The translations under genes were made by a program, and so were the position numbers. A stretch of DNA of 64,000 nt, taken from positions 118,068 to 182,067 of the forward strand of contig CAZRKP010000005.1 in the NCBI GenBank assembly GCA_964600895.1, written 5' to 3'. The stretch comes from an uncultured Victivallis sp. (GTDB lineage: Bacteria; Verrucomicrobiota; Lentisphaeria; Victivallales; GWF2-50-93). Under the pieces are notes generated by a model that saw only the letters and a program-made list of their open reading frames with translations, ran no database searches and had not been told where the DNA came from. This document shows, in pieces, positions 8,617-52,566 of this stretch; position 1 is the stretch's first letter; every line of letters begins with the position of its first letter.

Positions 8617-8647
8617 GAAGTCAGGACACAGAATTCAGAATAAAGGA
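8617..8647. repeat. Single arm of the TCAGAAT/CAGGA word repeat
   Basis: 'agaagtcaggacacagaattcagaataaagg' lies between the two oxidoreductase genes. Confidence 0.5.
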
Positions 8648-8655
8648 ATTTTCAT

Positions 8656-9732
8656 ATGAACAAAAGAATTGAATTTGGGATTATCGGTGGAGGATGGAGG
8701 GCGGAATTTTTCCTCAGGATAGCGCAGGCGCTTCCCGAAAGGTTCGGAATTACCGCCATGATGGTGCGCAACCCGGAAAAAGGAGCGGTCATAGAATCCA
8801 CCTGGGGAGTGAAGACCTACAGCAATATGGATGAGTTCCTTCAGAAGTCGAAACATTCATTCGTTGTAGTTTCAGTTCCTTCAGACATCGCAGGAAAGAT
8901 CGTAACGGATCTTGCAGGGAAAAAGGTCCCAGTCCTGATGGAAACACCACCAGCCAAGGATCTCAACGGACTTACCACCCTCTTCAATGCTGTCGGTTCA
9001 AGTGCCATGGTCCAGGTGGCGGAACAATACGCCTTCCAGCCCATACATGCGGCCCGTCTCAACTTCATCAGTTCAAAAAGACTTGGTGACATAAGCCAGG
9101 CCCAGGTTTCAGTGACCCATGACTATCACGGCATAAGCCTGATGCGCAGATTCCTGGACATCGGCTTTGAAAACGCCACGATCCGTGGATTTTCCTTCAA
9201 GGCCCCGATAGTCTCAGGTCCCGGGCGCAATGGTCCTCCGGAAAGCGAGAAGATCAACATGTCCGGACATTCCATCGCGTCCTTTGAATTCGACGGGAAA
9301 CTTGGCATATATGATTTTACTTTTGACCAGTATTTCTCATGGATAAGGACGCCGAGGGTGCTGATACGCGGTGAACGGGGAGAGATCAACAACAGCATGA
9401 TCAACTATCTCGAGGAATTCAAATCACCGATCCGTACGGAGTTCATCAGGCAGGAGGCCGGACAGGACGGAAACCTGGAAGGCCATTACCTGAAAGGAAT
9501 CCTGGCCTGTGGTGAATGGTTCTACAGGAATCCATTTGTTCCCGGCAGGCTGTCCGACGACGAAATAGCGATAGCGACCTGTCTTGAGAAGATGAGCCTG
9601 TTCGTGGAAAACAGAATTGACTTCTATAGCCTGGCTGAAGCATGCCAGGATGCTTATCTGGGCATTTTGATGAACAGGGCAATCGCCTCAGGCGAACAGA
9701 TCAGGACTGAAAAGCAGGTCTGGGCTCCTTAA
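8656..9732 (+). CDS. Gfo/Idh/MocA family oxidoreductase (second, divergent copy)
   Basis: 'IEFGIIGGGWRAEFFLRIA' N-terminal dinucleotide-binding motif, plus 'LMETPPA'. Confidence 0.8.
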   Translation: MNKRIEFGIIGGGWRAEFFLRIAQALPERFGITAMMVRNPEKGAVIESTWGVKTYSNMDEFLQKSKHSFVVVSVPSDIAGKIVTDLAGKKVPVLMETPPAKDLNGLTTLFNAVGSSAMVQVAEQYAFQPIHAARLNFISSKRLGDISQAQVSVTHDYHGISLMRRFLDIGFENATIRGFSFKAPIVSGPGRNGPPESEKINMSGHSIASFEFDGKLGIYDFTFDQYFSWIRTPRVLIRGERGEINNSMINYLEEFKSPIRTEFIRQEAGQDGNLEGHYLKGILACGEWFYRNPFVPGRLSDDEIAIATCLEKMSLFVENRIDFYSLAEACQDAYLGILMNRAIASGEQIRTEKQVWAP

Positions 9733-12681: not shown

Positions 12682-16113
<3,432 letters not shown>

Positions 16114-16216
16114 CCCCCCACGCCCTATGTCCTTTTCAAGCGTAGGATGAACTGACTTTTGCTCGCTACCGTTGATAGAATCTTTTTTTCCATAAATATT
16201 ATCCGAAATATTTAGT

Positions 16217-19200
16217 TTACTTTGAACTCCAGCGTTTCCGCCAGTTTTCGGTGCTTTCCTTACGGAGTTCATCAGAGGTCTTGGTCCAATCAAGGGCGGT
16301 GAAAATGGTAAACCCCTCCTTGCCATCGGTCCGCCCGTCAATAACTAATTCCCTCTGATCGGGGGAGAACCTGCCCCATGAAACTTGTCTAATGATGCCA
16401 CTAAACTTCAGAAGTTCATTCTGGGTATTCGGCTCCCAGATTCGGACTGTATGATCATTACTTCCGGAAATAATTCTCTTCCCGTCCGGTGAAAATTCAG
16501 CGAAACAGACAGCCTGTGAATGCATTTTTATTTCCCAGGCACAGGTTCCTGCCTCAATATTCCAAAATCTTATATATCCTGAATAATAGCCTACCAGTAA
16601 ATATTTCCCGTCTGGCGAGAAAGTCACTGACCAAGGGGAATCCATTGCTATGAAAGTCCTGTTCTCTTTCCGGGAAACAAGATCCCAAATGACAATACTG
16701 CTTTGGGGAGGGCATATGGCAATGCACGAGTCGTCTGGACTGAATGCTATCCAATGCGGATTATTCCATTGGATCTTGGATATTTTCAAATCCAAAATTA
16801 TCTGGCCTGAAGCCGCATCCCTTATAAAAGGACCTGCTTTCACATATCGTCCAGTGTTTGAGAATCCAAGATTCATGTCCAGTTTGGTATCCTGCTGCAC
16901 GGACCATATATTCTTCTTTGTCTGAAGATTGTGGAGAACAAGCGTGTTGGCCTTGTCCTTGTCAAACATGAGCATATAGCGACCATCTCTAGAGACGGTT
17001 GAATATCCATATCTGACTCCAGAGGGGCCTATGGAACGCTGTTCAACTGCCTGATTCCATATGCCCTTTGCATAGAAAAATGAATTCTTGCCTTGTAACT
17101 CTGAAATAAAGGCTCTTCCATCATCAAGAAATTCCAAATCCCCCATCATGGAAGGTTTGGAAAAGGGAATAATGACCTTTTGAGGAAGCTGCTGGAACGG
17201 CCAGATCCTGACAGCATATTTCGATTCATTTGCAGCGGTAAGCAGGCTTTTACTGTAGGGAAGAAGGACACACTTCAGTACTTGTTCGGAATGTCCTGTA
17301 AATTTACTGATCATCCTTCCAGTTTTACTTTCCCAGACATGAACCGCCCCTCCTGCATCTCCTGAAAAGATGTAATCTCCTTCCGGCGAATAGGAAATTG
17401 TGGAAATCGCAGCTCCTGTATTTTGAGACATGAGAACAGTCTTTCCTGTTGTCAAATCCAGTTCAACAACACTTCCGTTCCAACAGCCTCCGGCAAGCCT
17501 TGATCCATCCGGTGAAAAAACACTATATTCATGCCATCCTTCGGTGGTCAGTAAAATATCACCCTTCTGCGTGTCATATATTTTTGTTCTGTGCAAATTA
17601 CTACCAACATCTTCAGAAAATGACATTTTTCTCCCGTCAGGTGAGACAATAATGGGGATACTTCCTTCATTAAGCTTGCGAATCTCCTTCCCTTCCCTAA
17701 TATCCCATAAGGCGTGCTCCATCTTCTTTTTATCTGTATCAAGAGAGGCTGAAATCACGGCATGTGAATTATCTTGCATAAAGATGACCTTCTGGAAGGA
17801 ATAGCCTTCTTTATTTTGAGTCCATAAGACACGACTGCTTTCCAAATCAAACAAGGAAATATCACTGTCTCTCGCCATAATTATAGTCTGCCCATCAGGA
17901 GAAATAGAGAGTACAAATGTTGAAGCTGGTTTTGTTAAATATGAAATATCCAGCCGTTTCAACTCCCGTGCCCCTTGTACGTCCCATAGGATCCTTTCTT
18001 TAGCTTTATGAGATCCAGTAATCATCCTTTTCCCATCTGCGCTCACTTTGCAGAGCCAGATCGATTCGACATTGAAAACAGCTTCCTCTCTGGGGCAAAG
18101 CCCCATCAGATATCCCCATTCCCAGTTCCGCAGATATTGAGGACAACTTTCCAAAGTATTCTTGGCCGAAATAATATCTCCCTCGGCTATTTTACGGTCC
18201 GCAAGCTGGATTTTCGCCACATAGGCTTCCCATTCAGCCTTCTTCCTGATTTCTTTTTCACTTTCTTCAGCAGCTTGGGCTTTTTTCATGGAAGCAGAAG
18301 CAACTTTTTCATTGGCAACTGCCTTCCTCCACTGGGCAAGAGAGATTACAAGACCAAGCATTATTGAAAGAAGGACAAGGGCGGCAGCAGTTACAAAACC
18401 CTTGTGCCGTTTCGCCAGAAGCCAGAACTGCTTTATCACGCCTGCCTTTTCTGCGGATGTCGCAAATCCCCCTTGATACGCCTCAATGTCCTTCTGCAAA
18501 GCCTTCACATCCTGATAACGTTCCTCTTTCCTAAGCGACAACGCCTTCAGTGCTACTGACGACAGCGCCGGAGGTATATGCCCTCCGGGCAGATGAGGCA
18601 AGGACAATTTGTGTGACTTCTCATATTTCGTCGGCGGTTCGATCTGCCCCTTCGCCACCTTCATGAGGACTTCGTTGACGCTGGTACCTTCAATCGGAGG
18701 ATGAAGGGTGAGTATCTGGTAGAGGATGGCACCGAGTGCATAGATGTCGGTTCGCTGGTCAATCTCCGATATTCTGCCATACGCCTGTTCCGGAGCCATA
18801 TATAACGGAGTGCCCCTGAGCTGTCCTTCCATGGTCATCGCACCTGATCCGGCAATATTCTCTTCTGTCCTTGCGGATTCTATCTGAGCACTGGTATCTT
18901 CAGCTTCTTCCTCTTTGCTCCCAAGAACCTTCCCAAGACCCCAGTCCATAACAAGCGCCTCTCCGAACTCTCCAACCATGATGTTCTCGGGTTTCAGATC
19001 CCGGTGGACAACTCCTTTTGTATGCGCAAAAGACATGGCTTCGCAGATCTTCAGGAAGATATTGAGAAGACTGTTTAGAGGATATTTCGTGATTAATTCG
19101 GCGTCCCCATCTTTGATTCCCGCCAGAATCTTATCAAGGTTGTCCCCTTTTATGAACTTCATCGTGTAGAAGACGTTGCCAGAAGAATCGACCCCGAGCT

Positions 19201-19582
19201 CATGGACAGGAACGATACTCGGATGCTCCATCTGTCCGGTGATCTGCGCTTCCTCAATAAACCTTAGTATCTGTTCATCGTTGGCCCTTTTCGGATCAAG
19301 TAGCACCTTCATCGCTACGGTACGACGGATATTTAAATCCTTGGCCTGAAGTATCGCTCCCATGCCCCCTGCGGCAACTTTGCTTCCAATGTCGTATTTC
19401 TTTCCGGCTTGATCGACGAGAATTGAAGATGCGGAAGAAGAGGACTTTCCCTTTTCATCAAGGGCAACTCCACCATCAATTCCCTTCTTTTCCAGGAACT
19501 GCGTGATCGTTATCCCGCCGCGCTGGATGTCGGAGTCAAGGGTTGCTTTCAATTCGGAAAGATTATTTTCCCTGTCAGCCAT
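16217..19582 (-). CDS. Ser/Thr protein kinase - TM - coiled coil - WD40 beta-propeller protein (paralogue 2)
   Basis: Same architecture as paralogue 1. The kinase domain is near-identical, including an 89-nt stretch of perfect DNA identity (19113-19201 versus 15713-15801). Confidence 0.9.
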   Translation of the reverse strand: MADRENNLSELKATLDSDIQRGGITITQFLEKKGIDGGVALDEKGKSSSSASSILVDQAGKKYDIGSKVAAGGMGAILQAKDLNIRRTVAMKVLLDPKRANDEQILRFIEEAQITGQMEHPSIVPVHELGVDSSGNVFYTMKFIKGDNLDKILAGIKDGDAELITKYPLNSLLNIFLKICEAMSFAHTKGVVHRDLKPENIMVGEFGEALVMDWGLGKVLGSKEEEAEDTSAQIESARTEENIAGSGAMTMEGQLRGTPLYMAPEQAYGRISEIDQRTDIYALGAILYQILTLHPPIEGTSVNEVLMKVAKGQIEPPTKYEKSHKLSLPHLPGGHIPPALSSVALKALSLRKEERYQDVKALQKDIEAYQGGFATSAEKAGVIKQFWLLAKRHKGFVTAAALVLLSIMLGLVISLAQWRKAVANEKVASASMKKAQAAEESEKEIRKKAEWEAYVAKIQLADRKIAEGDIISAKNTLESCPQYLRNWEWGYLMGLCPREEAVFNVESIWLCKVSADGKRMITGSHKAKERILWDVQGARELKRLDISYLTKPASTFVLSISPDGQTIIMARDSDISLFDLESSRVLWTQNKEGYSFQKVIFMQDNSHAVISASLDTDKKKMEHALWDIREGKEIRKLNEGSIPIIVSPDGRKMSFSEDVGSNLHRTKIYDTQKGDILLTTEGWHEYSVFSPDGSRLAGGCWNGSVVELDLTTGKTVLMSQNTGAAISTISYSPEGDYIFSGDAGGAVHVWESKTGRMISKFTGHSEQVLKCVLLPYSKSLLTAANESKYAVRIWPFQQLPQKVIIPFSKPSMMGDLEFLDDGRAFISELQGKNSFFYAKGIWNQAVEQRSIGPSGVRYGYSTVSRDGRYMLMFDKDKANTLVLHNLQTKKNIWSVQQDTKLDMNLGFSNTGRYVKAGPFIRDAASGQIILDLKISKIQWNNPHWIAFSPDDSCIAICPPQSSIVIWDLVSRKENRTFIAMDSPWSVTFSPDGKYLLVGYYSGYIRFWNIEAGTCAWEIKMHSQAVCFAEFSPDGKRIISGSNDHTVRIWEPNTQNELLKFSGIIRQVSWGRFSPDQRELVIDGRTDGKEGFTIFTALDWTKTSDELRKESTENWRKRWSSK

Positions 19583-19679
19583 ATACCCCCGAAAAATGAT
19601 TAAAGAAGTTGTATATAAATACTTTTCTTACCGCATATAGTCAATAATGACAAAGCAGTAAATTCATGCTGGTATGGAA

Positions 19680-20660
19680 TTATTTTCCTTTTGCAGGCAC
19701 CCAGCTGACATCTTTTACGGTGAACGAGGATTTGTCGTCTTTTTCCTTGGAGATGGAAGGACAGTATACCCAGGTCCTGATGGTTCCGTTCTTAGTGTCA
19801 ATCTCGAAAAGCCTTACAGGATTCGTCTCATTGTCGTGATAGCACTGGATGAATTCGTAAATGGTGTTGCCATTGTCACCCTTGTCGGTCCTGTATCCAT
19901 GCTTCCCGGCGTGGCCGCAGAAGACAAGCTTGACATTTGAATACTTCTTTACGAGGTTGTCAAAGATGAACTGTGGACTGTTGTTGCCATACCCTCCATT
20001 TGTCTTTTCAATCGCTCCTCCCCCATTCAGGAAGGAATGTGTAACAAAGATTATGTTGTGGTTGGGATGATCCTCCACGACTTTCTTCGCCCATTCGACA
20101 GCCTCGGTCCTCGCCCACAGTTCCAGGCTGATCACGAGCCAGTCAAGTCCGCCTGCCTTGAATGTCTGGAACGAGTTTTCTACCTTGGCCTTCTCAAATG
20201 TTCCTCCCAGGTTCTTGAAGCGTTTAACCGGGAAATATGTATTGAAAGTCGAAGTGTTCCTCAGGTTTGTGTTGACATTGCCCGGAGCTGCGCTGCCACC
20301 TTCCTTCGTTGCCGCAGAATCATGGTTCCCAAGCGCAACGGCATATTGGATCCCGGCCTTGTCGAGGATCTCAAATCCCTTGCTGTTCCTTTCATACTGG
20401 GCATGGTCCGGAGTGTCCCAGTTCATCATGTCGCCCACATGCAGGACTATCTTGAGATTAAGCTCCTTCTGGTTGTCGACGAGCCACTGCATGCGGTTCT
20501 TGAGCCTGGTATCCTTGTCGTTTAAGATCTCCTGCTGGGAATCCGGAATGACGGCGATAGTGAATTTATCCTCGGAAAAACAGTTCCATGAATAAAGCAC
20601 TCCTGCCAGCAATCCAAACAGCAGGATTATTTTTCTAAGCATTGCCATAAAAATTCTCAT
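19680..20660 (-). CDS. Secreted calcineurin-like metallophosphoesterase
   Basis: Signal-like N-terminus. 'IAVIPDSQQE', 'LHVGDMMNWD', 'LGNHD' and 'FVTHSF' are the metallophosphatase motifs. The start overlaps the upstream stop (ATGA). Confidence 0.8.
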   Translation of the reverse strand: MRIFMAMLRKIILLFGLLAGVLYSWNCFSEDKFTIAVIPDSQQEILNDKDTRLKNRMQWLVDNQKELNLKIVLHVGDMMNWDTPDHAQYERNSKGFEILDKAGIQYAVALGNHDSAATKEGGSAAPGNVNTNLRNTSTFNTYFPVKRFKNLGGTFEKAKVENSFQTFKAGGLDWLVISLELWARTEAVEWAKKVVEDHPNHNIIFVTHSFLNGGGAIEKTNGGYGNNSPQFIFDNLVKKYSNVKLVFCGHAGKHGYRTDKGDNGNTIYEFIQCYHDNETNPVRLFEIDTKNGTIRTWVYCPSISKEKDDKSSFTVKDVSWVPAKGK

Positions 20661-21841
20661 ATCTGGTACGACTGGTTTCCGGCCGGTATTTCTATGAAGA
20701 ATGTGGTTCCCTCAGATTCATTTGAAGTGAACCATGCCCTTCCCTTGAGATATTTTTCTGTAAGGAGCCTGATGCTATAGGTGCCAAGACCGCGACCAAC
20801 GCCCTTTGAAGAAAAGGAACGGTTGAAGACCTGTCTCTGTACATGTTCAGGCATCATGCCGGGATTGTTGACGCTGAAAATCACATTTGTACCGTTGGAA
20901 CAACATCCAAGCGTGACTTCCTGCCCTGTCTTTATCGCTTCAAGTGCATTCTTGACCATGTTGCCAAGAATCCTGCGGACAATTGTCTTGTCGGAAACAA
21001 CTGGCAAGTCCTTGAAATCCGTGGAGATAACAACCGTTTTACCTTCGTCTCCCTGCTTCCTCCTGTATAGAGAACAAACTTCCTCTGCAACCATGCAAGT
21101 TCTGAATTCCTGTGGGGACAGTTTCAGATCATTGTGTTCGGCGTATGATATCATGCGCTGTGCCTTTATCTCTTCCGTAAGTGCCTCGGTGGAATCCGCA
21201 AAGAGATGCATGAGCTTGTCAATATCCTTCACCCTTCCCATCTTGAACAGCTCCGAGATCTGGTGAAGTTCGTTTGCTATGTTCATCACATCGTGGAAGA
21301 AAATCTTTTCGAGAGCGACCCTCCTCTTTTCGTCGCTGATGCATCTGAGCACATAGGCCACGAAATTCTTTTCACCTATCTGAATAGGTTTCGCCCAAAG
21401 GCGGAAATCCATGGCGTGTCCAGGTGGTTCCCTGAGAAAAAGGAGAACTTCCCTGCGGCCCTCATTGCCTTTCTGGGCATCCATGAATGCATTCGTACCT
21501 GCGCAGAACTGGCACACATCAGAAGTACCGCAACCTCCACTGCTATTGAAGGAGTTCTTGCAACCAAGCAGTTCACCTACGCGCAGCCCATAAGGCTCAG
21601 GCCCGTTGTTCTCCCTCTGGAAGTCAAGGCATGCCTTGTTTGCGAAGACTATCTGCCTCTGGTCATTGAGAACAATGAACATATCGGTGGTCGCATCAAG
21701 AAATTCCTGTATCAAATGGACCTTGGCCTTGTTCACCTTGGATATCTGGGTTTCCAGTTCGTCCAAGGACAGCCTTTCGGCCGGGGCATACTTGCTATTT
21801 TCCTTCACAGGCAGGTCCATTTTTATCTCCTTGAAAATCAT
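20657..21841 (-). CDS. Soluble sensor histidine kinase with a PAS-like domain carrying a C-x9-C-x5-C-x2-C motif
   Basis: No TM segment. 'FIVLNDQRQIVFANKA' is PAS-like. Cys motif 'CKNSFNSSGGCGTSDVCQFC'. H-box-like 'FFHDVMNIANELH'. HATPase_c motifs 'NMVKNALEA...GVGRGLGTYSIRLL'. Confidence 0.8.
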   Translation of the reverse strand: MIFKEIKMDLPVKENSKYAPAERLSLDELETQISKVNKAKVHLIQEFLDATTDMFIVLNDQRQIVFANKACLDFQRENNGPEPYGLRVGELLGCKNSFNSSGGCGTSDVCQFCAGTNAFMDAQKGNEGRREVLLFLREPPGHAMDFRLWAKPIQIGEKNFVAYVLRCISDEKRRVALEKIFFHDVMNIANELHQISELFKMGRVKDIDKLMHLFADSTEALTEEIKAQRMISYAEHNDLKLSPQEFRTCMVAEEVCSLYRRKQGDEGKTVVISTDFKDLPVVSDKTIVRRILGNMVKNALEAIKTGQEVTLGCCSNGTNVIFSVNNPGMMPEHVQRQVFNRSFSSKGVGRGLGTYSIRLLTEKYLKGRAWFTSNESEGTTFFIEIPAGNQSYQI

Positions 21842-21933
21842 AAGGAACTAGAGGTCTTTTCGTTTGAAACTTTGTATTTTAAAACCTCCAATGTATACTG
21901 ATATTATAGGGAATTGAAAAGTCCAGAGGCCCC

Positions 21934-22944
21934 ATGAAATATGACCGTAAAAACTTCACGATGATTGAGATCGTCCTGGCGATATCCGTCATATTCATTC
22001 TTCTCAGCCTTACCTTGCCTGGAATCCAGAAGGCCAAGCTGAAGGCCAAAGCCGTAAGATGGCTTGCCTACAACAATGGACTCAACAGGGATCCTGATCT
22101 GGTATTGAACTACAATTTCCAGAATCCTGATATGAGAATGGACACTCCAATGGGAAATTGCGATGTGGTCATCAATGGCGGAGTGGGTTGCGGATTCGAC
22201 GGATTCAAGCCGGAAAAATATAATGCGGTCATGATGAACGCACCCGAATGGAAAAAATCCGGAAGATGGTTGAGTTTTGACAAGTCAATGTCATTTGACG
22301 GTTTCACAGGATACCTCCAGGTTCCAGGCAATGAAGTCCTGAAGCTGACCCCTGGAAGTTCGGATTTCACCGTGGCGGGATGGGTGAAGTTTGATGTTCT
22401 TGGAGGAATCCAGGTCGTCATCTCAAAATCCCTCTGGCCGAACTACTCGGTCTTCGCGATCTATTCCCTGAACAATTCACTGAATGCGGACATCGGCTCC
22501 ATGACTCTTTCCTATACTGGAAATGACTTCAAGGCCGGGAAGTGGTTCCATTTCGCGCTTGTGGCCGACGGCCCGCAGATCTCCTTTTATGTAAACGGGA
22601 AGATTGCTGATTCCTCAAGCTTTGGGTCCGGTGGCAAGGTTGTAATATCTCATGATCCTGGCAACGGTGATCCTCCACACGTTCTTGTAGTCGGCGCCGC
22701 AGGATGGAATGGACACAAGAACCATCCTGGAGATCAGTTGCTTTCAACGGATCCAAACGCGTATTTCCAGCAGAACTATATTCAGGACATCAAGGATACA
22801 ACCGTTATCATTGGTGCAGCCGGGATGCAGGATGCTGCCCCCAGCTTGTTTTTCAAAGGTGCAATGGATGAGATAATACTCTCAAGAAGAGCCTGGAAGA
22901 AAGATGCGGTAAGTGGTCATTTTGAAATGGGAAATCCTTACTAA
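21934..22944 (+). CDS. Prepilin-type N-terminal domain fused to a LamG/concanavalin-A-like lectin domain
   Basis: 'FTMIEIVLAISVIFILLSLTLPGIQKAK' followed by 'DFTVAGWVKF...GKWFHFALVADGPQISFYVNG...FKGAMDEIILSRRAW', a LamG-like pattern. Confidence 0.75.
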   Translation: MKYDRKNFTMIEIVLAISVIFILLSLTLPGIQKAKLKAKAVRWLAYNNGLNRDPDLVLNYNFQNPDMRMDTPMGNCDVVINGGVGCGFDGFKPEKYNAVMMNAPEWKKSGRWLSFDKSMSFDGFTGYLQVPGNEVLKLTPGSSDFTVAGWVKFDVLGGIQVVISKSLWPNYSVFAIYSLNNSLNADIGSMTLSYTGNDFKAGKWFHFALVADGPQISFYVNGKIADSSSFGSGGKVVISHDPGNGDPPHVLVVGAAGWNGHKNHPGDQLLSTDPNAYFQQNYIQDIKDTTVIIGAAGMQDAAPSLFFKGAMDEIILSRRAWKKDAVSGHFEMGNPY

Positions 22945-22962
22945 GGGGAAAAGGGGTTTACA

Positions 22963-24801
22963 ATGGCAAGGATAATAGCTGCTGACGACAATAAGATAAC
23001 CCAGATGTTCTACGAGAACATTTTGGAATTCCTCGGCCATGAATACAAGATATGTTCAAACGGCGAGGAGGTCATCGAGGAGTTCATAAGGAAACCAGTG
23101 GACCTCCTGATACTTGACTACCAGATGCCCAAGATGGACGGATTTGAGGTCTGCCGCAAACTCAGGGCTTCTGCGGAAGGAATAACTGTCCCTATAATCA
23201 TAGTCTCCGCCATGCAGGATGAGGAGACCATCATGGAGGGACTCGATGCAGGAGCTACCGACTATCTGCTCAAACCGGTCACAGAAGCACATCTGATTGC
23301 AAAGCTCAAGAACTATCTTAATACTTCCTCCCTTCACAGGAAGGATCTGGATCTTGTGAAGAGCCAGACTGTCTTCGCCGGCCATTACAAGATCGAAAAA
23401 CTGCTCGGATATGGCAGCCATTCAGTGGTTTTCCTGGCGAAGGACAGGAAGAACAATGATGCCGATGTCGCCATAAAGCTCCTGCATGAGAATTCAGATA
23501 CCGTGGCAATAGCCCCAACATTCATGGAGACGGCCTCCAGGATGAGGAATTTGAACTCCGAAAACATATTGAAGATACTTGATTCAGGCCAGTATGGGGG
23601 TCGCCTCTATCTGATAATGGAATACGCGAACCAGAAGGATCTCGCTTCACTGCTGAAGACAAGAACCCTCACCGACAGGGAGACGGCTCTTCTGATATCA
23701 AGCATGCTGGAAGCACTGAAGACACTAAAGGAAAACAACCTCGTCCATTTTGACATAAAACCGGAGAACATCCTGATAAAGGACAATCTCTTCAAGCTGG
23801 GCGATTTTGGGATAGTACCATCTGCCAATGCTAAAAGTACGATTTCACTGGACAAGGGGAATGTCTGGACAACGATGTCCTATCTTGCCCCGGAAAATCT
23901 GAATCTCTCCACAGATCAGACATTCTCTCCTGATATAAGATGCGACATCTACAGTCTTGGTGTCACTGCATATGAATCATTTTCCGGAGACAATCCTTTC
24001 GATTCTGACAAGCTCACTGTTTCAATTCACAGGCAGCTGAGCTATGTCCCTCCTCCATTGCATGTCCAGACTCCTGCGATCCTGCGCATACTTTCAGATG
24101 CTATTGAATCAATGCTCAGGAAAAATCCCGAGGAAAGGGCTGAACTCGACCAGCTTCTGCCTGCTTTTGTGGAAATAAACGCCTATCTCGCGACCAAAAA
24201 TCCTGTCTTAGTAGGATATACTACCGGTTCAGAGGCCAAGCCTGAGGAACAGAAACCTGTCGGTAATGCCGGTCCTGCCCAGGAACCATCAAAATCTGAA
24301 CCTGCTGAAGCCAGCGAACCAGTTCTGGAACCGCTGTCCAAAACATATTTCAGGGAGCTTCCCTACAGGGAGGCCTATGATTTCAAATATAAGGCTCTCA
24401 GGCTCATTGCTGCCGTTGCAATTCTGGCAGTAAGCACCTGGCTCAGCCTGACATTATACAAGTTCATGTTGAACAAGATGACCCCTGTAGATGATACTGC
24501 TTCCATATACGCGGTCAAATGCAGGAGTTGCGGACAGTTCCAGGAAATGAACATAACTGACATAAAGAATGCAAAATGCCAGTTCTGCAAAAAGACAGAT
24601 CTTTGCTATATGATGACTTGCGACGACTGCGGAAACGTATTCCCGTTCAGAAATGAATATCCGAAGGATGTAAAGTCAAAGGAAGAAATGATAGAAGCTC
24701 TTCAGCAGATGAACCGCTGTCCATCATGCGGCTCATCGAAGATCGAACCTTCATATACGAATATCAAGATGCTGAAGAAGTTCAAATCCGAAAAGAAGTG
24801 A
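22963..24801 (+). CDS. Response-regulator receiver (REC) - Ser/Thr protein kinase - TM - double zinc-ribbon fusion protein
   Basis: REC: 'IIAADDN...DLLILDYQMPKMDGFEVCRKLR...DYLLKPV'. Kinase: 'VAIKLL', 'HFDIKPENILI', 'GDFGI', 'YLAPE'. TM: 'LIAAVAILAVSTWLSLTLY'. The C-terminus has CxxC pairs ('CRSCG..CQFCKK', 'CDDCG..CPSCGS'). Confidence 0.9.
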   Translation: MARIIAADDNKITQMFYENILEFLGHEYKICSNGEEVIEEFIRKPVDLLILDYQMPKMDGFEVCRKLRASAEGITVPIIIVSAMQDEETIMEGLDAGATDYLLKPVTEAHLIAKLKNYLNTSSLHRKDLDLVKSQTVFAGHYKIEKLLGYGSHSVVFLAKDRKNNDADVAIKLLHENSDTVAIAPTFMETASRMRNLNSENILKILDSGQYGGRLYLIMEYANQKDLASLLKTRTLTDRETALLISSMLEALKTLKENNLVHFDIKPENILIKDNLFKLGDFGIVPSANAKSTISLDKGNVWTTMSYLAPENLNLSTDQTFSPDIRCDIYSLGVTAYESFSGDNPFDSDKLTVSIHRQLSYVPPPLHVQTPAILRILSDAIESMLRKNPEERAELDQLLPAFVEINAYLATKNPVLVGYTTGSEAKPEEQKPVGNAGPAQEPSKSEPAEASEPVLEPLSKTYFRELPYREAYDFKYKALRLIAAVAILAVSTWLSLTLYKFMLNKMTPVDDTASIYAVKCRSCGQFQEMNITDIKNAKCQFCKKTDLCYMMTCDDCGNVFPFRNEYPKDVKSKEEMIEALQQMNRCPSCGSSKIEPSYTNIKMLKKFKSEKK

Positions 24802-24812
24802 TGAAGACTTTC

Positions 24813-25325
24813 TCAGCCGAAGATCCTGTTGATGAATGAAAGGATCCTGGACACCAGGTTCAGTGTAGTTTTCTTACGCTTCCGGATGGATTCCCTATGG
24901 GCAAGGCTCTCCTCCTTCAGCCTTTTCAGTAGTTCCTCAAGTTCAGGAAGCTTGGTGGTAAAAGCATCAAAGACAATGGAATCAATTGTCTTATCCTCAA
25001 CAGTTTCAGCTAAAGAGAGAGCATCTGCCGATGAAAAATAATCCTTCGTGTTGAGGACACGGAGCTGCAGTTCCAAAAATTCGCATGTCTTTTCAAGAGT
25101 ATGTAGGGTTACGTCCTCATGCTCAACTGAAATTTTCCCTTCCTTAAGGCTGTCATGGAACTTGGTGACAATCCTTTCATGTCCTTCTTCCTCTTTCTTG
25201 AGCTTCGACCACAGATCGCGGTTGGCATGGTTCTTTTCTGCAAGCTTGCCGTAGATTTCGGCGGAAAGGGCCTCAACCAGTGCCATTTTCTTCAAGCGTA
25301 TTTCCTGTGTGACAACGCTGGTCAT
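24813..25325 (-). CDS. Hypothetical helical protein (possibly a ferritin-like four-helix bundle)
   Basis: Helical and Glu-rich with one 'EEGH' (ExxH) motif. ATG 25325 lies 4 nt after the FHA gene stop, and GTG 25337 is an alternative. The family assignment is weak. Confidence 0.5.
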   Translation of the reverse strand: MTSVVTQEIRLKKMALVEALSAEIYGKLAEKNHANRDLWSKLKKEEEGHERIVTKFHDSLKEGKISVEHEDVTLHTLEKTCEFLELQLRVLNTKDYFSSADALSLAETVEDKTIDSIVFDAFTTKLPELEELLKRLKEESLAHRESIRKRKKTTLNLVSRILSFINRIFG

Positions 25326-25329
25326 CAGC

Positions 25330-25731
25330 CTAAGCACTCTTTACATAGTTGAATTTAAAGGAACCGGTGCCGATGGGAATCACAGCGTCATCAAAGAGCC
25401 TGTAGGTATCCTTCTCGAATTTCTGTCTGTTCTGGCCTAAAACATGCACTTCGAAGTATTTCTCGGCAGGATGGCATATGAGCTCGAGGTGGTGCCTTGA
25501 AACAAACTTGTCTGTTATTGTGATGTGATTGCCAGATCCCCTTCCTATGGAATACGACAGGGGTAGAAGATCTATTACAGTTCCCTCCTTAATGTTCTCA
25601 AAGGGATCGATGCATACAAGCCTGGCCACTACGAGGTTCTTCTTGCAATTGGGACAGGAAAGTGAATTTCTGCCATTGTCCGCCCCGCAATGGAAACATT
25701 TGAAAGATTCTTCCATCTCCACTTCTCCCAT
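25330..25731 (-). CDS. Zinc-ribbon + FHA domain protein
   Basis: 'CFHCGADNGRNSLSCPNCKK' is a zinc ribbon. 'IGRGSGNHITITDKFVSRHHLEL...' is the FHA GR...SxxH core. Confidence 0.8.
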   Translation of the reverse strand: MGEVEMEESFKCFHCGADNGRNSLSCPNCKKNLVVARLVCIDPFENIKEGTVIDLLPLSYSIGRGSGNHITITDKFVSRHHLELICHPAEKYFEVHVLGQNRQKFEKDTYRLFDDAVIPIGTGSFKFNYVKSA

Positions 25732-25851
25732 TTCTACGAATACTATATCTCTGATTCTAAGATATCGCCAGCTAAAAAATATAGGACTCCTCTTAAAACT
25801 TAGTCAGCTCGCTGCTTTTGACTTTCAGCTTAAACGTCTTATTTTAGAACC

Positions 25852-27549
25852 ATGAAAATGCCATTCCCATCTGTCTCAAGGACAATCATAGTTCTCATGC
25901 TGTTTTTGTCGACCGCCGCTTCGGCAAGGGCAATAAGCTGGGAGTTCTCTGAAGTCTCGCTTTCGATCCGGCCAGACGGCAAGGCGACGGTCGTGTATCA
26001 AGTTGCAATCAATCCCCAGGGCTTCAACCTCCACGGATTCTATTTTGAAGGGTTTACTGGTAAGCCGCATTTCGACATGACACGCTGTTTCGCCCTTGAC
26101 GCGCAGAACAAAAAATATGATCTTTCAATAAAGCCTGTGAGCAGTTCGAAATACGACGTGATCCTCGCAAATGGCGCCGCCATCTCAAACAGCCGGGTGA
26201 TCTACAATCTAACCTATGGCACCGATCTCGCTGAAACCGGCAATCTTGCAGCTACAACATCTTCGGATGGAAAGAATCTCGTGGTCCTCAACTGGGCACC
26301 GGTCCAATGGGAGGATCCTGTCGGACACTATGCCCTGAAGATATACTGGCCAATGGAACTGCCAGACAACAAGGCTCCACGAGAAGAACTCTCGAAGAAA
26401 ATCCTGACTGAACAGTGGATGAACAAGCAATACAAGATGGACTATCGCGCCCAGGAATACAACGGAAAATTCTGGCTGATGCAGCTAATATACTGGGAGA
26501 AAGTGCCTGTCAAGGGGCATTTCCGCATCCAGGAATACGTCGATGCCTCCATCTTCAACCTTCCGGCAAAGAAATCCGCAGACTTGAATACAGGACTCGT
26601 CGAACCTCAGCCGGATGGAGGGAAACAAGTCCAGAATTTTGTACCTCCGACGAATGAACAGAACAACTATGGAGAGAACATAAGGAAATATTCGGTCATT
26701 GCATTGGCTGTGATGGCGGTCATACTGATCATTGCATTCCTGATCATAGTGATCGGAAAACACAACAGCATGCTGAGCGCAGCTGACGGGCTTTCGGATG
26801 TAAGCTGGATAGATCAGGACTGGACTCCTCCGAAAATGATCATCACAACTTTCAGGGAAAAGGGGAAGATCCCGAAGCTTTCAGTTCTTGAAGCCGCCTT
26901 GTTCATCGGTCTTCCAGTCAACCGTATCCTTGGAATAATGCTTGGCAAACTCCAGAACCAGGGGGTGGTAAGTCTCCATGATGACGGTCGCATAGATGTC
27001 CTTGATGCTGGAGCAAACCTCGATCAGTTCGAAACTCTGCTTGTACAGGCTGTAGGTCCGGACAACAGGCTCAATCCCGACAAGATCCGTGGACTGGTGA
27101 ATCTCATGGTAGATGAGATGCGCCGCAAATCCTGGGATGCCGACCCTGAAGCGACCACGGAATTTTACACCAATAAGTTCAGGGAGTCCTTTGAAAAGAA
27201 GCCACAGCCCACTGAACAGGATAAAAATTCCCAGCAGTATTATTATGACAACTATTATCCCTACTGGTTCTACTACTGCCATCATAACCATGACTCATAT
27301 CAAACTGCCAGCAATCAAGTTCCCAAGACCGTTCAGGGCAGTCTTGATTCGATTACTGGAATATCCGGGGACTACAAGAGCTTCATGGACAGCCCGGCCT
27401 GTTACCAGGGATGCTTTGTCCATACCGCATGCCATGATGCTTGTCACTCGGCCTGCCATTCGGCGTGTCATTCAGCATGTCATTCGGCATGCCACTCTGC
27501 GTGCCATTCTGCATGCCATTCAGCCTGTGTCAGCGGAGGTGCACATTGA
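25852..27549 (+). CDS. DUF2207-like single-pass membrane protein with a C-terminal Cys/His-rich (Ala-Cys-His-Ser)n repeat tail
   Basis: Signal peptide 'MKMPFPSVSRTIIVLMLFLSTAASARA'. N-terminal domain 'SLSIRPDGKATVVYQVAINPQGFNLHGFYF'. One TM at about aa 280-303 (26689-26760). 'LSVLEAALFIGLPVNRILGIMLGKLQNQGVV' resembles the DUF2207 post-TM motif. The tail reads 'CYQGCFVHTACHDACHSACHSACHSACHSACHSACHSACHSACVSGGAH'. Confidence 0.85.
   Translation: MKMPFPSVSRTIIVLMLFLSTAASARAISWEFSEVSLSIRPDGKATVVYQVAINPQGFNLHGFYFEGFTGKPHFDMTRCFALDAQNKKYDLSIKPVSSSKYDVILANGAAISNSRVIYNLTYGTDLAETGNLAATTSSDGKNLVVLNWAPVQWEDPVGHYALKIYWPMELPDNKAPREELSKKILTEQWMNKQYKMDYRAQEYNGKFWLMQLIYWEKVPVKGHFRIQEYVDASIFNLPAKKSADLNTGLVEPQPDGGKQVQNFVPPTNEQNNYGENIRKYSVIALAVMAVILIIAFLIIVIGKHNSMLSAADGLSDVSWIDQDWTPPKMIITTFREKGKIPKLSVLEAALFIGLPVNRILGIMLGKLQNQGVVSLHDDGRIDVLDAGANLDQFETLLVQAVGPDNRLNPDKIRGLVNLMVDEMRRKSWDADPEATTEFYTNKFRESFEKKPQPTEQDKNSQQYYYDNYYPYWFYYCHHNHDSYQTASNQVPKTVQGSLDSITGISGDYKSFMDSPACYQGCFVHTACHDACHSACHSACHSACHSACHSACHSACHSACVSGGAH
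27427..27534 (+). repeat. Coding tandem repeat: nine 12-nt units encoding A-C-x-[D/S] (1x ACHD, 7x ACHS, 1x ACVS)
   Basis: I read the codons directly. Every 12-nt unit differs from the others at synonymous positions (Ala gca/gct/gcc/gcg, Cys tgc/tgt, His cat/cac, Ser tcg/tca/tct). Confidence 0.95.
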
Positions 27550-29898: not shown

Positions 29899-30963
29899 TT
29901 ACTTGTATTCCTCGCATGCTTCCTTCATGGCCACAAGGTTCTCCCATGGGACTTCAGGTTCAACCATGTGAGTAGGACCGATAACAATACCGCCCTGCTT
30001 GCCACAGATTTGCAAATTCTTCCGGATAACATCCTTCACCTCGGCAGGTTTTCCAAAAGGAAGCGTGGTCTGCGTGCCTATGGTGCTCCAGAATGACATC
30101 CTTCCGCCGACAAGCTTGTGCACATCCTCGAACTTCATGCATTCCGGCTGCACGGGATTCAGAATGTCAACTCCAACCTCGATCAGATCGTCCAGGAACG
30201 GCAGGACGAATCCGCATGAATGGTAGAACACAAGGATGTCGGGCTTGATGTTACGAGCCTCGGCAATCACCTTTGCCAGCCTCGGCTTGAGCCACTGGCG
30301 CCAGAGCTCCACGCTCATCATCGGGGTCGACTGCATGCCGATGTCATCGCCAAGTTGGACAAGGTCCGTTCCAGCCTTCGCTGCAATACGGATCCTCTCG
30401 CAGGAAAGGTCTGTGATCTTGTCGAGAAGAACGGTGGCCTTCTCATCCTCGCTCAGCATATCGATCATCAGATCTTCCATTGAACGCATGTACCAGGATC
30501 CCTCCCATATCGTGCATGCCATCCCGACCATGGAAGCAAGTCCTTCCTTCCTCAGGTCCTCCACTTTCTTTTTCGCTTCAGGAAGTGCGTCCTTGTGGAA
30601 CGTAGGGAACGGATAATTATTGATCTCTTCGACGGTACGGTCGTCCCCTTTGAGAGGATGGTGCATTCGAGTCATGTGGAAGCATCCCGGCTGGTGTGAA
30701 TGTCCAACTCCGGTATTGCTGAAAGTCGTATCTGGTGGGAGTTCCTCGTGTCGATAGTATCTCTTCCAGTCTTTGAACGCCTGTTCCTCCCTTATCCCTA
30801 ATCCCCTGCACGGTGAACCAAACCATTTGTGATAATCCGTATGTCCGAAACGTTTCTTGAACGCCTCGAGCTGGTCCGGGCAGAACGCATTCGGATCGAT
30901 CGGAACCTTCTCAAATCCCTGCCTTCTCAACGACCTTAGAAGATTTTCGCGTAAAGTTGCCAT
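29899..30963 (-). CDS. Uroporphyrinogen decarboxylase (URO-D) family protein, not in a haem context
   Basis: The length and the motifs 'LGDDIGMQSTPMMS', 'FYHSCG' and 'VDILNPVQP' are typical of the URO-D/MtaA-like TIM-barrel family. Confidence 0.75.
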   Translation of the reverse strand: MATLRENLLRSLRRQGFEKVPIDPNAFCPDQLEAFKKRFGHTDYHKWFGSPCRGLGIREEQAFKDWKRYYRHEELPPDTTFSNTGVGHSHQPGCFHMTRMHHPLKGDDRTVEEINNYPFPTFHKDALPEAKKKVEDLRKEGLASMVGMACTIWEGSWYMRSMEDLMIDMLSEDEKATVLLDKITDLSCERIRIAAKAGTDLVQLGDDIGMQSTPMMSVELWRQWLKPRLAKVIAEARNIKPDILVFYHSCGFVLPFLDDLIEVGVDILNPVQPECMKFEDVHKLVGGRMSFWSTIGTQTTLPFGKPAEVKDVIRKNLQICGKQGGIVIGPTHMVEPEVPWENLVAMKEACEEYK

Positions 30964-31170
30964 ATTCTTACCTCATAAGTATGTCGGTTTTTAAACCGAC
31001 GATTTTGTTGACGGGTTAAAACCCGTCCTACTTTTTTAATCATACATATAAAATATGCCTTTATTCTATATCATGAATAGCAAAATCACCTATTTGCATA
31101 TACTTTTCGTATGGTCTATATTTTGAACCATCAAATCGAAAATCATCAATCAAAAATTAAAAATGCTCCT

Positions 31171-31980
31171 ATGCACAACCAGATGTTTTCACCGGACCGT
31201 ACGACTTCCTCTGGCACACTCAACATAAGGCGTGTCTGGGAGGTGCGAGGTGATCTGGACTATCAGAACGTCTGGAACAAGGGGTATCCTGGAAAAGGCA
31301 GTATCCTTGTCCGGACACTGGCAGGAGAAGGTTTCATCAAGCTGAAAAACGGCAAAAGACTCAAATGCCTCCCGGAAACTTTCGTCAATCTGAATCCGGA
31401 AATGGTCACCGCCTATGGCTGTGTCAGGCCACAATGGTCGTTCTGGTGGATCGAATGCGAGAATCCAAGCTCACTGAAATTTCCTGCGAACATCGCACTG
31501 AATATCAGGCAGGCCAAGGATGAACTGAATTTCCTCACTGAAAGCGTAAGGATGCTGTCGGAGGGCGAAGCCGCTGCGGTGGAAGCCGCAGCATCTATAA
31601 ATCTCCTCCTGCAGAAATGGTATCGGAGCTGGCGAGATGGAGAAAAGACTGCCTGCCATCCAGGAAGACGTGACAGGCTCCGCAACATTCTTACGATAAT
31701 GCAGGCTTCCGCAGAAAATCCCCTGCCGATTGCGACACTCGCAAAAAAAGCCTTCCTCAGCGAAGGAAGGTTCCGGCATGTATTTATGAAGACAACAGGG
31801 ATTTCTCCGAAATCATACTACGACAGCCTCAGACTGAATAGGGCACTGACCTGGCTGAGGGACACCGACATGAAGCTTGCGGATATCGCATCGCGGTTGA
31901 ACTATTCCAGCGCATTCCATTTAAGCCGTGCTTTCAAGAAGCGTTTCGGCAGACCGCCAACGGAATACAGGCCGAAATGA
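31171..31980 (+). CDS. AraC family transcriptional regulator
   Basis: The C-terminus 'LAKKAFLSEGRFRHVFMKTTGISPKSYYDSLRLNRALTWL...SSAFHLSRAFKKRFGRPPTEY' is an AraC HTH. The start is ATG 31171 or ATG 31111. The latter reads through an 'atcaaatcgaaaatcatcaatc' word repeat. Confidence 0.85.
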   Translation: MHNQMFSPDRTTSSGTLNIRRVWEVRGDLDYQNVWNKGYPGKGSILVRTLAGEGFIKLKNGKRLKCLPETFVNLNPEMVTAYGCVRPQWSFWWIECENPSSLKFPANIALNIRQAKDELNFLTESVRMLSEGEAAAVEAAASINLLLQKWYRSWRDGEKTACHPGRRDRLRNILTIMQASAENPLPIATLAKKAFLSEGRFRHVFMKTTGISPKSYYDSLRLNRALTWLRDTDMKLADIASRLNYSSAFHLSRAFKKRFGRPPTEYRPK

Positions 31981-32105: not shown

Positions 32106-33278
32106 CTATGATGAGGGGGCTTTTCCATCTTCAATAAGGCCTATGTACCCGAAATGTATCGTCATGTCTCCCTTAATGCTTTGCACCTGCGACTTATCAT
32201 AATAAATTACAGAGCACCCTCCTAACTGGACAAGATCCCCGGAAACAAGAATCCTGCGTTCAATCCTTGAACCATTGACATAGGTTCCATTCGCGCTGCT
32301 TTCATCCTTGACTGAGACAGTTGTCCCTTTGAGTTCAAAGGTCGCATGATGGCCCGATACTGTTTCAGAATTTAAGATTACGTCTGAAGACCTGTCCCTT
32401 CCGGCCCTGAGTGTTTTTCCGACGGATACATGGAAGGGATTTCCTTTTTCCGGGATAACAAGCAGGAAAAGTCCTGTCTGTTCGGGAATTGAAACCGACG
32501 ACATCTTTATCCTTATATCATCAATCCTCCTGCTCAGAGCCCTGTTCATTGTATCCTGCACTATCGTTTCCCTGTAGTTTGGAGTGCTATCCACCAGCGA
32601 TTCCAATGCGGATAAGATCACCTTCTCGTTTTTCGTCATCATCGCCAAAGTCTCTTCATCTCCAATGTCCTGGATTATCTGCATAAATTCCTTCTGCACG
32701 ATACCGAGGAAGCGGCTTTTGTGCTGGTAGACTGTTCCCGGTCTGTCAATCCCCAGCCTTTTGCATACTTCATTTACATCCAAGCCTTCAAGGACATAAA
32801 GGCAGAACGATTTATATGTCAGCGAATCAACTTTTCCATATGCTTGCCTGAGAGCCTGGGAGACAACTCCCCTTATCCATATTTCATCATTTTCAGAGTT
32901 GTCGGATACAGCGAGTAAAATATTGTTTTCTACTGCATCTTTTTCATCTGATTCGCCATCTGGAGAGGCAAATAGTTCATTTTCATTCTTCCTGCTTCTT
33001 ATGGTATCAATCACTCGCGCGTAAACTATTTTTTTCAAAAGACCGCGGAAACGACCTTTTTCAGGATGATATTCGAACTCCGGCATTATCCTAAGGAGAC
33101 ATAGCATGGTCTCCTGGAATACGTCATCCAGAAGGGACGGAGGACAGCCCTTGTTCCTTGCCCATCCGGTGATGATGTCCCAGTAAAACTGTGCGAATTC
33201 GGTCCATGCCGTCTCGTCGGCAGGATTTTTGAGCCGCATAAGAAGCGTACAGTGGGTCATTTTATCTGAATACTGCAT
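32106..33278 (-). CDS. Sigma-70 family (ECF-like) RNA polymerase sigma factor fused to a C-terminal FHA domain
   Basis: Region 2-like: 'AWTEFAQFYWDIITGWARNKG...DDVFQETMLCLL'. Region 4-like: 'FCLYVLEGLDVNEVCKRLGIDRPGTVYQHKSRF'. FHA: 'LRAGRDRSSDVILNSETVSGHHATFEL...SSANGTYVNGSRI...GDLVQLG'. Start candidates are TTG 33311, ATG 33278 and ATG 33260. Confidence 0.85.
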   Translation of the reverse strand: MQYSDKMTHCTLLMRLKNPADETAWTEFAQFYWDIITGWARNKGCPPSLLDDVFQETMLCLLRIMPEFEYHPEKGRFRGLLKKIVYARVIDTIRSRKNENELFASPDGESDEKDAVENNILLAVSDNSENDEIWIRGVVSQALRQAYGKVDSLTYKSFCLYVLEGLDVNEVCKRLGIDRPGTVYQHKSRFLGIVQKEFMQIIQDIGDEETLAMMTKNEKVILSALESLVDSTPNYRETIVQDTMNRALSRRIDDIRIKMSSVSIPEQTGLFLLVIPEKGNPFHVSVGKTLRAGRDRSSDVILNSETVSGHHATFELKGTTVSVKDESSANGTYVNGSRIERRILVSGDLVQLGGCSVIYYDKSQVQSIKGDMTIHFGYIGLIEDGKAPSS

Positions 33279-33383
33279 GGATAAAATTATTATAAATAAC
33301 CCTTTTTTCAATATTTATCTAAATTTGAGGCGGTTCATGTTTTCAGGATATTTGGTGTGATTTTAGTCAAAATGCGCCTTCTT

Positions 33384-52559: not shown

Positions 52560-52566
52560 AAGTACC

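Follow-up and report, generated by a model that had tools for sequence, protein, structure and literature searches.

A receiver–Hanks kinase fusion encoded together with a pilin-like LamG protein in an uncultured Victivallis sp.: a candidate connection between His-Asp and Ser/Thr signalling

The 64-kb stretch of DNA analysed here, hereafter the window, comes from an uncultured Victivallis sp. (contig CAZRKP010000005.1) and carries a two-gene cassette that encodes a pseudopilin-like LamG protein and a protein, here called REC-STK, in which a receiver (REC) domain is followed by a Hanks-type Ser/Thr kinase, a transmembrane (TM) helix and a double zinc ribbon (Table 1). A soluble histidine kinase (HK394) is encoded divergently from this cassette; on its other side lie the gene of a small protein with a zinc ribbon and an FHA domain (ZnFHA), a cassette that includes a radical SAM enzyme, and the gene of a fusion between a sigma factor and an FHA domain (sigma-FHA). 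The initial annotation of this region had joined these genes in a single chain, in which HK394 would gate the Ser/Thr kinase through its receiver, the output of the kinase would be read by the two FHA proteins, and the radical SAM operon would be controlled in consequence. The gene map, obtained from a listing of open reading frames (ORFs) and from Pfam and NCBIfam scans, confirmed with small corrections the genes and domains on which that proposal was built. Nevertheless, the reading that we favour, with somewhat better than even confidence, is that the functional unit is a Lentisphaerota-specific LamG/REC-STK cassette, joined by ZnFHA in the clade of the window, and not a five-gene chain.

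The window was compared with 28 distinct related loci, all of them apparently from Lentisphaerota/Victivallales. Nine were obtained by exact look-ups of kinase homologues (36–65% identity), and the other 19 by scanning metagenome contigs with a family-specific kinase motif; a 20th locus, L100, is a duplicate of L089. A contig scan based on the full-length kinase alignment picked generic motifs (AGANDYLxKP, SDIYSLGVT), and the 80 kinases and receivers that it gave belonged to other phyla, were unrelated and were of no use for synteny. The loci were scored by tblastn and with profiles built in this analysis, and the genes downstream of the kinase were searched with Pfam. The kinase alignment includes 31 homologues (29–66% identity), and that of the LamG protein nine orthologues.

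The gene for REC-STK starts 18 nucleotides after the end of the LamG gene. The initial annotation had described a divergent two-gene unit with a REC–Ser/Thr kinase fusion as its second gene, and this holds: the protein matches Response_reg with 89.3 bits (gathering score 30.2) and Pkinase with 145.9 bits (31.7). The REC domain has an acidic pocket formed by D8 and D9, and among the 31 homologues D52, S82, K104 and P105 are invariant and D8 nearly so; the phospho-acceptor within 'LILDYQMP', formerly numbered D54, is D52. In the kinase domain, residues K172, H262, K266, N269, D281-F-G283 and P310-E311 are invariant in the same alignment, while the catalytic D264 is nearly invariant, being an Asn in two of the 31 homologues. 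In the window the catalytic loop reads H-F-D, and throughout the family H-[FL]-D, which makes this a non-RD kinase. In RD kinases an Arg precedes the catalytic Asp, and this type of loop implies control through the activation loop. With its non-RD loop, REC-STK is probably independent of phosphorylation at the activation loop, a character that would fit control by the fused receiver. Since the REC domain is N-terminal to the enzymatic domain and is joined to it by a short helical linker, the standard layout of a response regulator, it would be the REC domain that controls the kinase.

The region C-terminal to the kinase shows a hydropathy peak at residues 481–503. In the AlphaFold2 model, with a mean predicted local distance difference test score (pLDDT) of 81.7, the REC domain scores above 90 and the kinase near 90 or above; residues 416–473 form a disordered linker rich in Ser, Thr, Pro and Glu (pLDDT below 50), residues 474–506 a helix, and the C-terminal end a beta-rich domain (78–91). 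This last region contains four CxxC pairs (C520/523, C539/542, C553/556 and C586/589), in which seven of the eight Cys residues are invariant and C523 is nearly so among the 31 homologues, and it gives a weak match to Zn_ribbon_8. Provided that the TM helix exists, an extracytoplasmic location is predicted for the zinc-ribbon domain. Neither the TM helix nor the CxxC-rich C-terminus had been mentioned in the initial annotation, which also missed the pseudopilin-like identity of the LamG protein, the most strongly conserved partner of the kinase.

Among solved structures, the kinase domains of PknB, PknA and StkP are the nearest in fold, and the best structural match is 6i2p, the PknB kinase domain with GarA (Foldseek to PknB: E 6e-20, template-modelling score on the target, TMt, 0.75–0.84). 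The best solved match of the REC domain is PleD. The fold search of the PDB gave kinase domains only, and no solved chain among the top matches spans a REC domain and a kinase. The REC-STK family has more than 100 full-length homologues (30–65% identity), and those that carry a taxonomic name belong to Lentisphaerae, Lentisphaerota or Victivallales; to our knowledge, no REC–Hanks kinase fusion has been characterised so far. REC-STK is best read as a response regulator with Ser/Thr phosphorylation as its output.

The LamG protein matches Laminin_G_3 with 46.6 bits and begins with a class-III, prepilin-type N-terminal helix ('FTMIE...', helix at residues 10–28), in which F8, T9 and E12 are invariant in the nine orthologues. 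Phe at +1, Glu at +5 and the hydrophobic helix, all features of a class-III signal, are present in these proteins. In contrast, Gly at −1 is found only in the orthologue of L092, its place being taken in the other eight by N, N, K, S, F, Y, C or F, and these proteins may thus bypass canonical processing by the prepilin peptidase. A weak N_methyl match was obtained for the LamG proteins of L092 and L093, and an invariant juxtamembrane motif, RW..YN...N...N.NF, is present in the family. A LamG homologue is encoded directly upstream and on the same strand for 23 of 31 REC-STK copies, with gaps from tens of nucleotides to about 140 (this count takes in both copies of the tandem pair of L092 and the second copies in L104 and L107), and directly downstream for four more of the 31; only L115 has no LamG homologue within 10 kb. 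The LamG and REC-STK genes therefore cluster beyond chance. Tandem duplications of the LamG/REC-kinase pair, or of the kinase gene at least, occur in L092, L104 and L107 (also in L106 and L112), and their presence in several genomes indicates that the cassette expands as a unit. In the literature searched, no description of Lentisphaerae pseudopilins and no proposed function for the pilin-like LamG family were found. Since the LamG domain and the C-terminal domain of REC-STK are both predicted to be extracytoplasmic, a co-sensor relationship between them is allowed. The conserved association with a kinase gives a hint of what one or more of the pilin-like LamG proteins of Lentisphaerota may do.

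A His-Asp input to the REC-STK family is well supported by gene order, because genes for REC, REC-Hpt, Hpt or PAS-HisKA-HATPase-REC-Hpt hybrid kinases lie directly downstream of the kinase gene and on the same strand in 11 of the 21 loci that have downstream sequence (L089, L090, L092, L093, L102, L104 and L106–L110). Judged by their domains, the genes downstream of REC-STK in these sister loci make up a complete multistep phosphorelay. They provide indirect support for acceptance of a phosphoryl group from a histidine kinase or an Hpt protein. The first half of the earlier proposal, namely that a histidine kinase may act on the Ser/Thr kinase through its receiver, is thus supported in outline for the family. 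The window itself has neither an Hpt protein nor a hybrid histidine kinase, and in its clade the REC domain is intact and no relay is encoded in cis. This clade was defined by a neighbour-joining tree, in which the window kinase groups with the kinases of the loci that bear ZnFHA (L086 and L087); the LamG partners in the clade share an insertion of about 45 residues. Flanking genes differ in every related locus.

ZnFHA matches the FHA domain of Pfam with 31.3 bits (gathering score 20.7) and consists of an N-terminal CxxC-x10-CxxC segment followed by the FHA domain. The residues of the phosphothreonine pocket, whose positions were assigned by motif (G63-R64, S78-R-H-H81 and N101), are kept in the window, in L086 and in L087. 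The family is very small, with four clusters in a word-indexed search of 5.8 billion proteins. Among the 28 loci a homologue was found only in L086 (kinase 64% and FHA protein 69% identical) and in L087 (41% and 36%); nonetheless, in all three loci of the window's clade in which it can be observed its gene is convergent to that of REC-STK, and all other flanking genes differ. ZnFHA therefore clusters with REC-STK beyond chance within one clade, and on this pattern it is probably a true clade-specific partner of the kinase. The conserved convergent order in three loci also supports the idea that ZnFHA may bind phosphothreonine made by REC-STK. Three further membrane Hanks kinases are encoded within 13 kb, and only this conserved adjacency points to REC-STK as the kinase served by an FHA reader. 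In L087 the ZnFHA gene follows an FtsK/SpoIIIE gene (7004–9673, minus strand) on the same strand with a gap of 15 nucleotides, a possible hint that ZnFHA is connected with DNA translocation or cell division. In L091 and L103, small ORFs that follow the kinase gene were considered as diverged FHA genes and rejected as not homologous.

The initial annotation described the ZnFHA gene as convergent with the kinase gene. The two are indeed on opposite strands, but not directly adjacent, because a gene for a protein of 170 or 174 residues lies between them, directly after ZnFHA and in the same direction. Its product has no match in Pfam or NCBIfam at E≤0.01 and only a weak one to Rubrerythrin (E 0.069). 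A 154-residue protein encoded directly upstream of the LamG gene in L087 (3621–4085, plus strand) resembles it (pairwise E 2e-7) and shares an ExxH motif with it. The protein is possibly a ferritin/rubrerythrin-like helical bundle with an ExxH motif, and it may be a further accessory part of the cassette.

HK394 was predicted to be soluble in the initial annotation, and this is borne out, because it has no hydrophobic segment. It matches HATPase_c with 50.3 bits (cut-off 26.4); H183 in the H-box 'FFHD' is invariant, as are N294, N298 and GRGLGTY of the N and G boxes. No HisKA-family match was obtained with Pfam at E≤0.01, and the 'FFHDxxN' H-box together with HATPase_c_5 suggests a divergent type of dimerisation and histidine phosphotransfer domain. 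The PAS-like sensor region has four invariant Cys residues (C94, C104, C110 and C113), which form the family motif C-x9-C-x5-C-x2-C ('GGCGTTxFCxxCGA'); a fifth, nearly invariant Cys of the family is absent from the window copy (V132). This motif suggests a metal or Fe-S/redox sensor. The family is made up of soluble kinases of about 380 residues from several phyla (2682 matches, the best only 38–45% identical), with REC or REC-Hpt fusions among its members. Two contexts were inspected, L095 and L097, and in neither does a dedicated partner adjoin the gene; members of this family are usually orphans. The stop codon of HK394 overlaps the start of the gene for a secreted metallophosphoesterase by four nucleotides, which suggests that it is co-transcribed with this gene and not with the cassette.

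HK394 and REC-STK are the sole histidine kinase and the sole REC protein detected by Pfam in the window; because of this, and because the REC domain is intact and has no relay in cis, HK394 is a plausible phosphodonor on the strength of its position, a role that we put well short of an even chance. The HK394 profile meets only the generic catalytic domains of hybrid histidine kinases in the related loci. The possibility that HK394 is a diverged copy of these hybrid kinases was rejected, given that the matches span only the catalytic half of the profile (positions ~170–380) and never the four-Cys sensor domain. In L085 and L086, the nearest relatives (kinase 64–65% identical), the divergent upstream position is occupied by a Hanks kinase that resembles the 366-residue one of the window.

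The remaining genes of the region are included in Table 1. Between 10.7 and 33.3 kb the window holds four membrane Hanks kinases, one histidine kinase, two FHA proteins, an HD protein and the metallophosphoesterase, and the remainder is devoted to metabolic and transport genes. Besides REC-STK, the Hanks kinases are three single-pass membrane proteins encoded within 13 kb of the cassette; two of them are paralogous giants (1121 and 1219 residues) with extracytoplasmic WD40 beta-propellers, and their genes overlap by about 125 nucleotides as called. No PP2C phosphatase was found among the annotated ORFs of the window of at least 150 residues. Both URO-D-like (uroporphyrinogen decarboxylase family) genes adjoin a gene for an AraC-type regulator.

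Table 1. Genes and domains of the window, numbered from its first nucleotide
Feature	Position	Strand	Basis or family
Membrane Hanks kinase, 366 residues	11571-12671	+	
Two giant Hanks kinase-TM-WD40 proteins	12682-16341 and 16217-19582	-	
Secreted calcineurin-like phosphoesterase (metallophosphoesterase)	19680-20660	-	
HK394, soluble histidine kinase with four-Cys PAS-like region, 394 residues	20657-21841	-	HATPase_c
Divergent intergenic region (92 nucleotides), HK394 operon versus LamG/REC-STK cassette	21842-21933		
Pseudopilin-like LamG protein, 336 residues	21934-22944	+	Prepilin-type N-terminus, Laminin_G_3
Prepilin-type N-terminal region of LamG protein	21934-22050	+	
REC-STK (REC-Hanks kinase-TM-double zinc ribbon), 612 residues	22963-24801	+	Response_reg, Pkinase
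REC domain, residues 4-115	22972-23307	+	Response_reg
PknB-like kinase domain, residues 142-399	23386-24159	+	Pkinase
TM helix of REC-STK, residues ~474-506	24382-24480	+	Hydropathy, AlphaFold2
C-terminal double zinc-ribbon-like domain of REC-STK	24502-24750	+	Four CxxC pairs
Protein of 170/174 residues, no assigned family	24813-25325/25337	-	
ZnFHA, zinc ribbon and FHA, 128/133 residues	25330-25716/25731	-	FHA
Membrane protein ending in (ACHS)n repeat, 565 residues	25852-27549	+	
Radical SAM/SPASM enzyme	27441/27513-28880	+	
Multi-TM protein after radical SAM gene, 333/369 residues	to 29868	+	
URO-D-like gene	29899-30963	-	
AraC-type regulator adjoining it	31111-31980		
Sigma-FHA, ECF-type sigma and FHA	32106-33311	-	
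ORF upstream of sigma-FHA, 128 residues	33384-33770	-	
AraC-type regulator adjoining second URO-D-like gene	51750-52634		
Second URO-D-like gene	52853-53926	+	

The divergent spacing of 120 nucleotides between ZnFHA and the supposed radical SAM operon (135 from the alternative ATG at 25716) is correct, but the first gene of that operon encodes a 565-residue membrane protein with a Cys/His repeat and not the radical SAM enzyme. This protein, for which no Pfam or NCBIfam match was found, has a signal peptide, a TM segment at residues 283–301 and the tail HDACHS(ACHS)x7ACVSGGAH; its gene is overlapped by that of the radical SAM/SPASM enzyme, which is followed by the gene of a multi-TM protein. 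The enzyme looks like a maturase that acts not on a small peptide but on the tail, with its Cys/His repeat, of a large membrane protein. No feature above chance was found in the 120-nucleotide region by promoter, terminator and repeat scans. From 19500 to 26100, a stretch that takes in the 92-nucleotide region between HK394 and the LamG gene, the promoter and terminator scan gave 9 and 6 sites, versus 7.8 and 6.0 expected from shuffled sequences, and from 20600 to 26000 the repeat search gave only short matches at the level expected by chance.

The sigma-FHA gene, located 7 kb away as had been described, encodes a protein that matches TIGR02937 with 46.8 bits (cut-off 42.9), Sigma70_r2 with 25.4 (24) and FHA with 61.8, and its sigma part is of the extracytoplasmic function (ECF) type. 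A HMMER search of 1.84 billion representatives gave about 55 full-length relatives (340–400 residues, 50%-identity representatives, E<1e-30), which identifies a genuine conserved fusion family. The 2021 paper that reclassified ECF sigma factors does not use the term 'FHA' in its main text, and no description of sigma-FHA fusions was found in the literature searched. Control by docking on phosphothreonine is conceivable for such a sigma factor. Homologues of the 565-residue protein, the radical SAM enzyme, the 369-residue protein and sigma-FHA are lacking in all 28 related loci; because they are never co-located with the kinase, we find no evidence in gene order that ties the output of REC-STK to the radical SAM cassette or to sigma-FHA. 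The co-occurrence that the initial annotation had proposed to check thus held for LamG with REC-STK and, in one clade, for ZnFHA, whereas clustering beyond chance is not supported for HK394, the radical SAM cassette and sigma-FHA.

On the basis of the domains, catalytic residues and conservation patterns observed, a mechanism can be proposed for the direction in which phosphoryl groups flow, for the gating of the kinase and for the docking of the FHA protein. The first gene of the cassette would encode a prepilin-type helix inserted in the inner membrane and carrying a periplasmic LamG/ConA-like domain, and the second a response regulator with a Hanks-type kinase output that is tethered by one membrane helix and has a double zinc ribbon at its end. 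The attached kinase would be switched when D52 of the receiver is phosphorylated. In most members the phosphoryl group would arrive via the His-Asp-His-Asp relay encoded in cis downstream (hybrid histidine kinase, Hpt and additional REC), and the ancestral REC-STK may have been the end point of such a relay. In the clade of the window the relay is not encoded in cis, and the convergent ZnFHA seems to have become the linked partner instead. ZnFHA most likely docks on phosphothreonine made by REC-STK, as adaptor or as substrate; the analogy of PknB with its FHA partners makes the disordered Ser/Thr-rich juxtamembrane linker of REC-STK a candidate docking site. An extension of this mechanism, by analogy with PilS-PilA, would make the LamG pseudopilin and the REC-kinase a two-input sensor, in which the TM helix and the zinc ribbon monitor the LamG pool or its ligand state, the receiver integrates the His-Asp relay, and the phosphothreonine output is read by ZnFHA and possibly by sigma-FHA factors. 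We consider this extension distinctly unlikely as a whole; if true, it would represent a hard-wired bridge from two-component to Ser/Thr/FHA signalling.

Several observations weigh against parts of this proposal. With respect to HK394 as the donor in the window, tblastn and profile searches gave no homologue in any of the 28 loci, and its adjacency to the cassette is typical of neither the HK394 family nor the REC-STK family. As for ZnFHA, its conservation comes from three loci, the FHA domain could be a reader for any one of the four membrane Hanks kinases encoded within 13 kb, and the FtsK adjacency in L087 may mean that ZnFHA belongs there to another unit. In addition, an extracytoplasmic zinc ribbon, as implied if the TM helix is real, would be unusual for Zn-Cys4 modules, and no description of a REC–Hanks kinase fusion family was found in the literature searched.

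The alternative that survives best, although still unlikely, is that only LamG and REC-STK form a unit and that HK394, ZnFHA, the other three Hanks kinases and sigma-FHA represent independent pathways gathered by chance in a variable signalling island. The many signalling genes between 10.7 and 33.3 kb, the flanks that change from locus to locus and the outcome of the promoter, terminator and repeat scans, in which nothing rose above the shuffles, all agree with this view; nevertheless, the convergent ZnFHA is retained at 64% and at 41% kinase identity while the other neighbours are replaced, a pattern not easily accounted for unless the two genes are functionally linked. Very unlikely is a flow in the reverse direction, with the kinase as the sensor through its zinc ribbon and the LamG protein, and either with the REC domain modulating the relay in the role of docking module or phosphate sink, or with relay proteins as targets of the kinase on Ser or Thr. 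Its receptor-like topology (one TM helix and a conserved Cys-rich C-terminal domain) and the gene for a periplasmic partner do suggest that the kinase has an input of its own, and Hanks kinases are known to phosphorylate response regulators on Ser/Thr in other bacteria; on the other hand, an N-terminal REC domain with a short helical linker is the layout in which the REC domain controls the output, and all phospho-acceptor residues are intact. Least likely of all is the complete chain, in which HK394 phosphorylates the receiver, ZnFHA and sigma-FHA both read the phosphothreonine marks and the divergent radical SAM cassette is controlled: the only histidine kinase and REC genes of the window are indeed divergent and 1.1 kb apart, ZnFHA shares its upstream region with the cassette, and sigma-FHA is a real fusion family, but five of the genes involved (those for HK394, the 565-residue, radical SAM and 369-residue proteins, and sigma-FHA) are missing from every related locus, the place of HK394 is taken by a Hanks kinase in L085 and L086, the FHA gene of L087 abuts FtsK and not the cassette, and HK394 appears to be transcribed with the phosphoesterase.

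From these results, the LamG/REC-STK cassette is a good experimental entry to the coupling of His-Asp to Ser/Thr phosphorylation, while the five-gene circuit is mostly unsupported; the correction also keeps a speculative regulatory link to the radical SAM cassette from spreading. REC-STK in particular offers a clean system in which to study how Asp phosphorylation switches a eukaryote-like kinase, the more so as it is non-RD. All the parts described are of known kinds, and their combination was not found in the literature searched or among solved structures. This combination joins a receiver to a non-RD Hanks kinase that has a TM helix and, at its end, a double zinc ribbon, pairs it with a pilin-like LamG protein, and appears to wire it either into a phosphorelay or to an FHA protein dedicated to it.

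Like PleD (REC-REC-GGDEF), CheB (REC-methylesterase) and REC-PP2C proteins such as RsbY, REC-STK has at its N-terminus a CheY-like receiver, in which the Asp pocket is intact, and a fused enzyme that is presumably switched by it; unlike these proteins, it has a Hanks-type Ser/Thr kinase as its output, with a TM helix and a zinc ribbon after it. A single-pass PknB-like kinase accompanied by a small FHA protein is also found in the mycobacterial PknB with GarA, FhaA and FipA/FhaB, where the FHA protein reads the phosphothreonines of the kinase, as ZnFHA would do here. In contrast with that kinase, REC-STK is non-RD, has a receiver, and carries zinc ribbons in place of PASTA repeats, and ZnFHA has an N-terminal zinc ribbon. 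The pilin-like partner recalls the PilS-PilA system, where the pilin is sensed within the membrane by the polytopic histidine kinase PilS. In both cases a class-III pilin-like protein is encoded with a membrane kinase; however, the kinase is here a single-pass Hanks kinase, and the pilin-like protein has a LamG domain and no canonical Gly at −1 in eight of nine orthologues, and an interaction of LamG with the kinase in the manner of PilS-PilA is pure conjecture. The control of ECF sigma factors by Ser/Thr kinases is exemplified by EcfP/PknT (PMC7826278). Sigma-FHA would likewise couple an ECF-type sigma factor to phosphothreonine signalling, but through a fused FHA reader and not by direct phosphorylation of sigma itself, and it is not co-located with the REC-STK cassette in related loci.

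The sister loci resemble the Hpt phosphorelays of the ArcB, TorS and BarA-type hybrids and of Rcs, since HisKA-HATPase-REC-Hpt hybrids, REC-Hpt proteins and stand-alone Hpt proteins are encoded after the kinase gene; the difference is that the terminal receiver would drive a Ser/Thr kinase and not a DNA-binding domain. Finally, the cyanobacterial HstK family, in which a Hanks kinase is fused to a histidine kinase transmitter, also unites Hanks-type and two-component signalling in one polypeptide, with the distinction that in REC-STK the fused module is a receiver and not a transmitter. Cross-talk between two-component systems and Hanks kinases is usually inferred from promiscuous phosphorylation; REC-STK contains both signalling systems in a single polypeptide, and the sister loci place it in an operon with what is predicted to be a complete phosphorelay.

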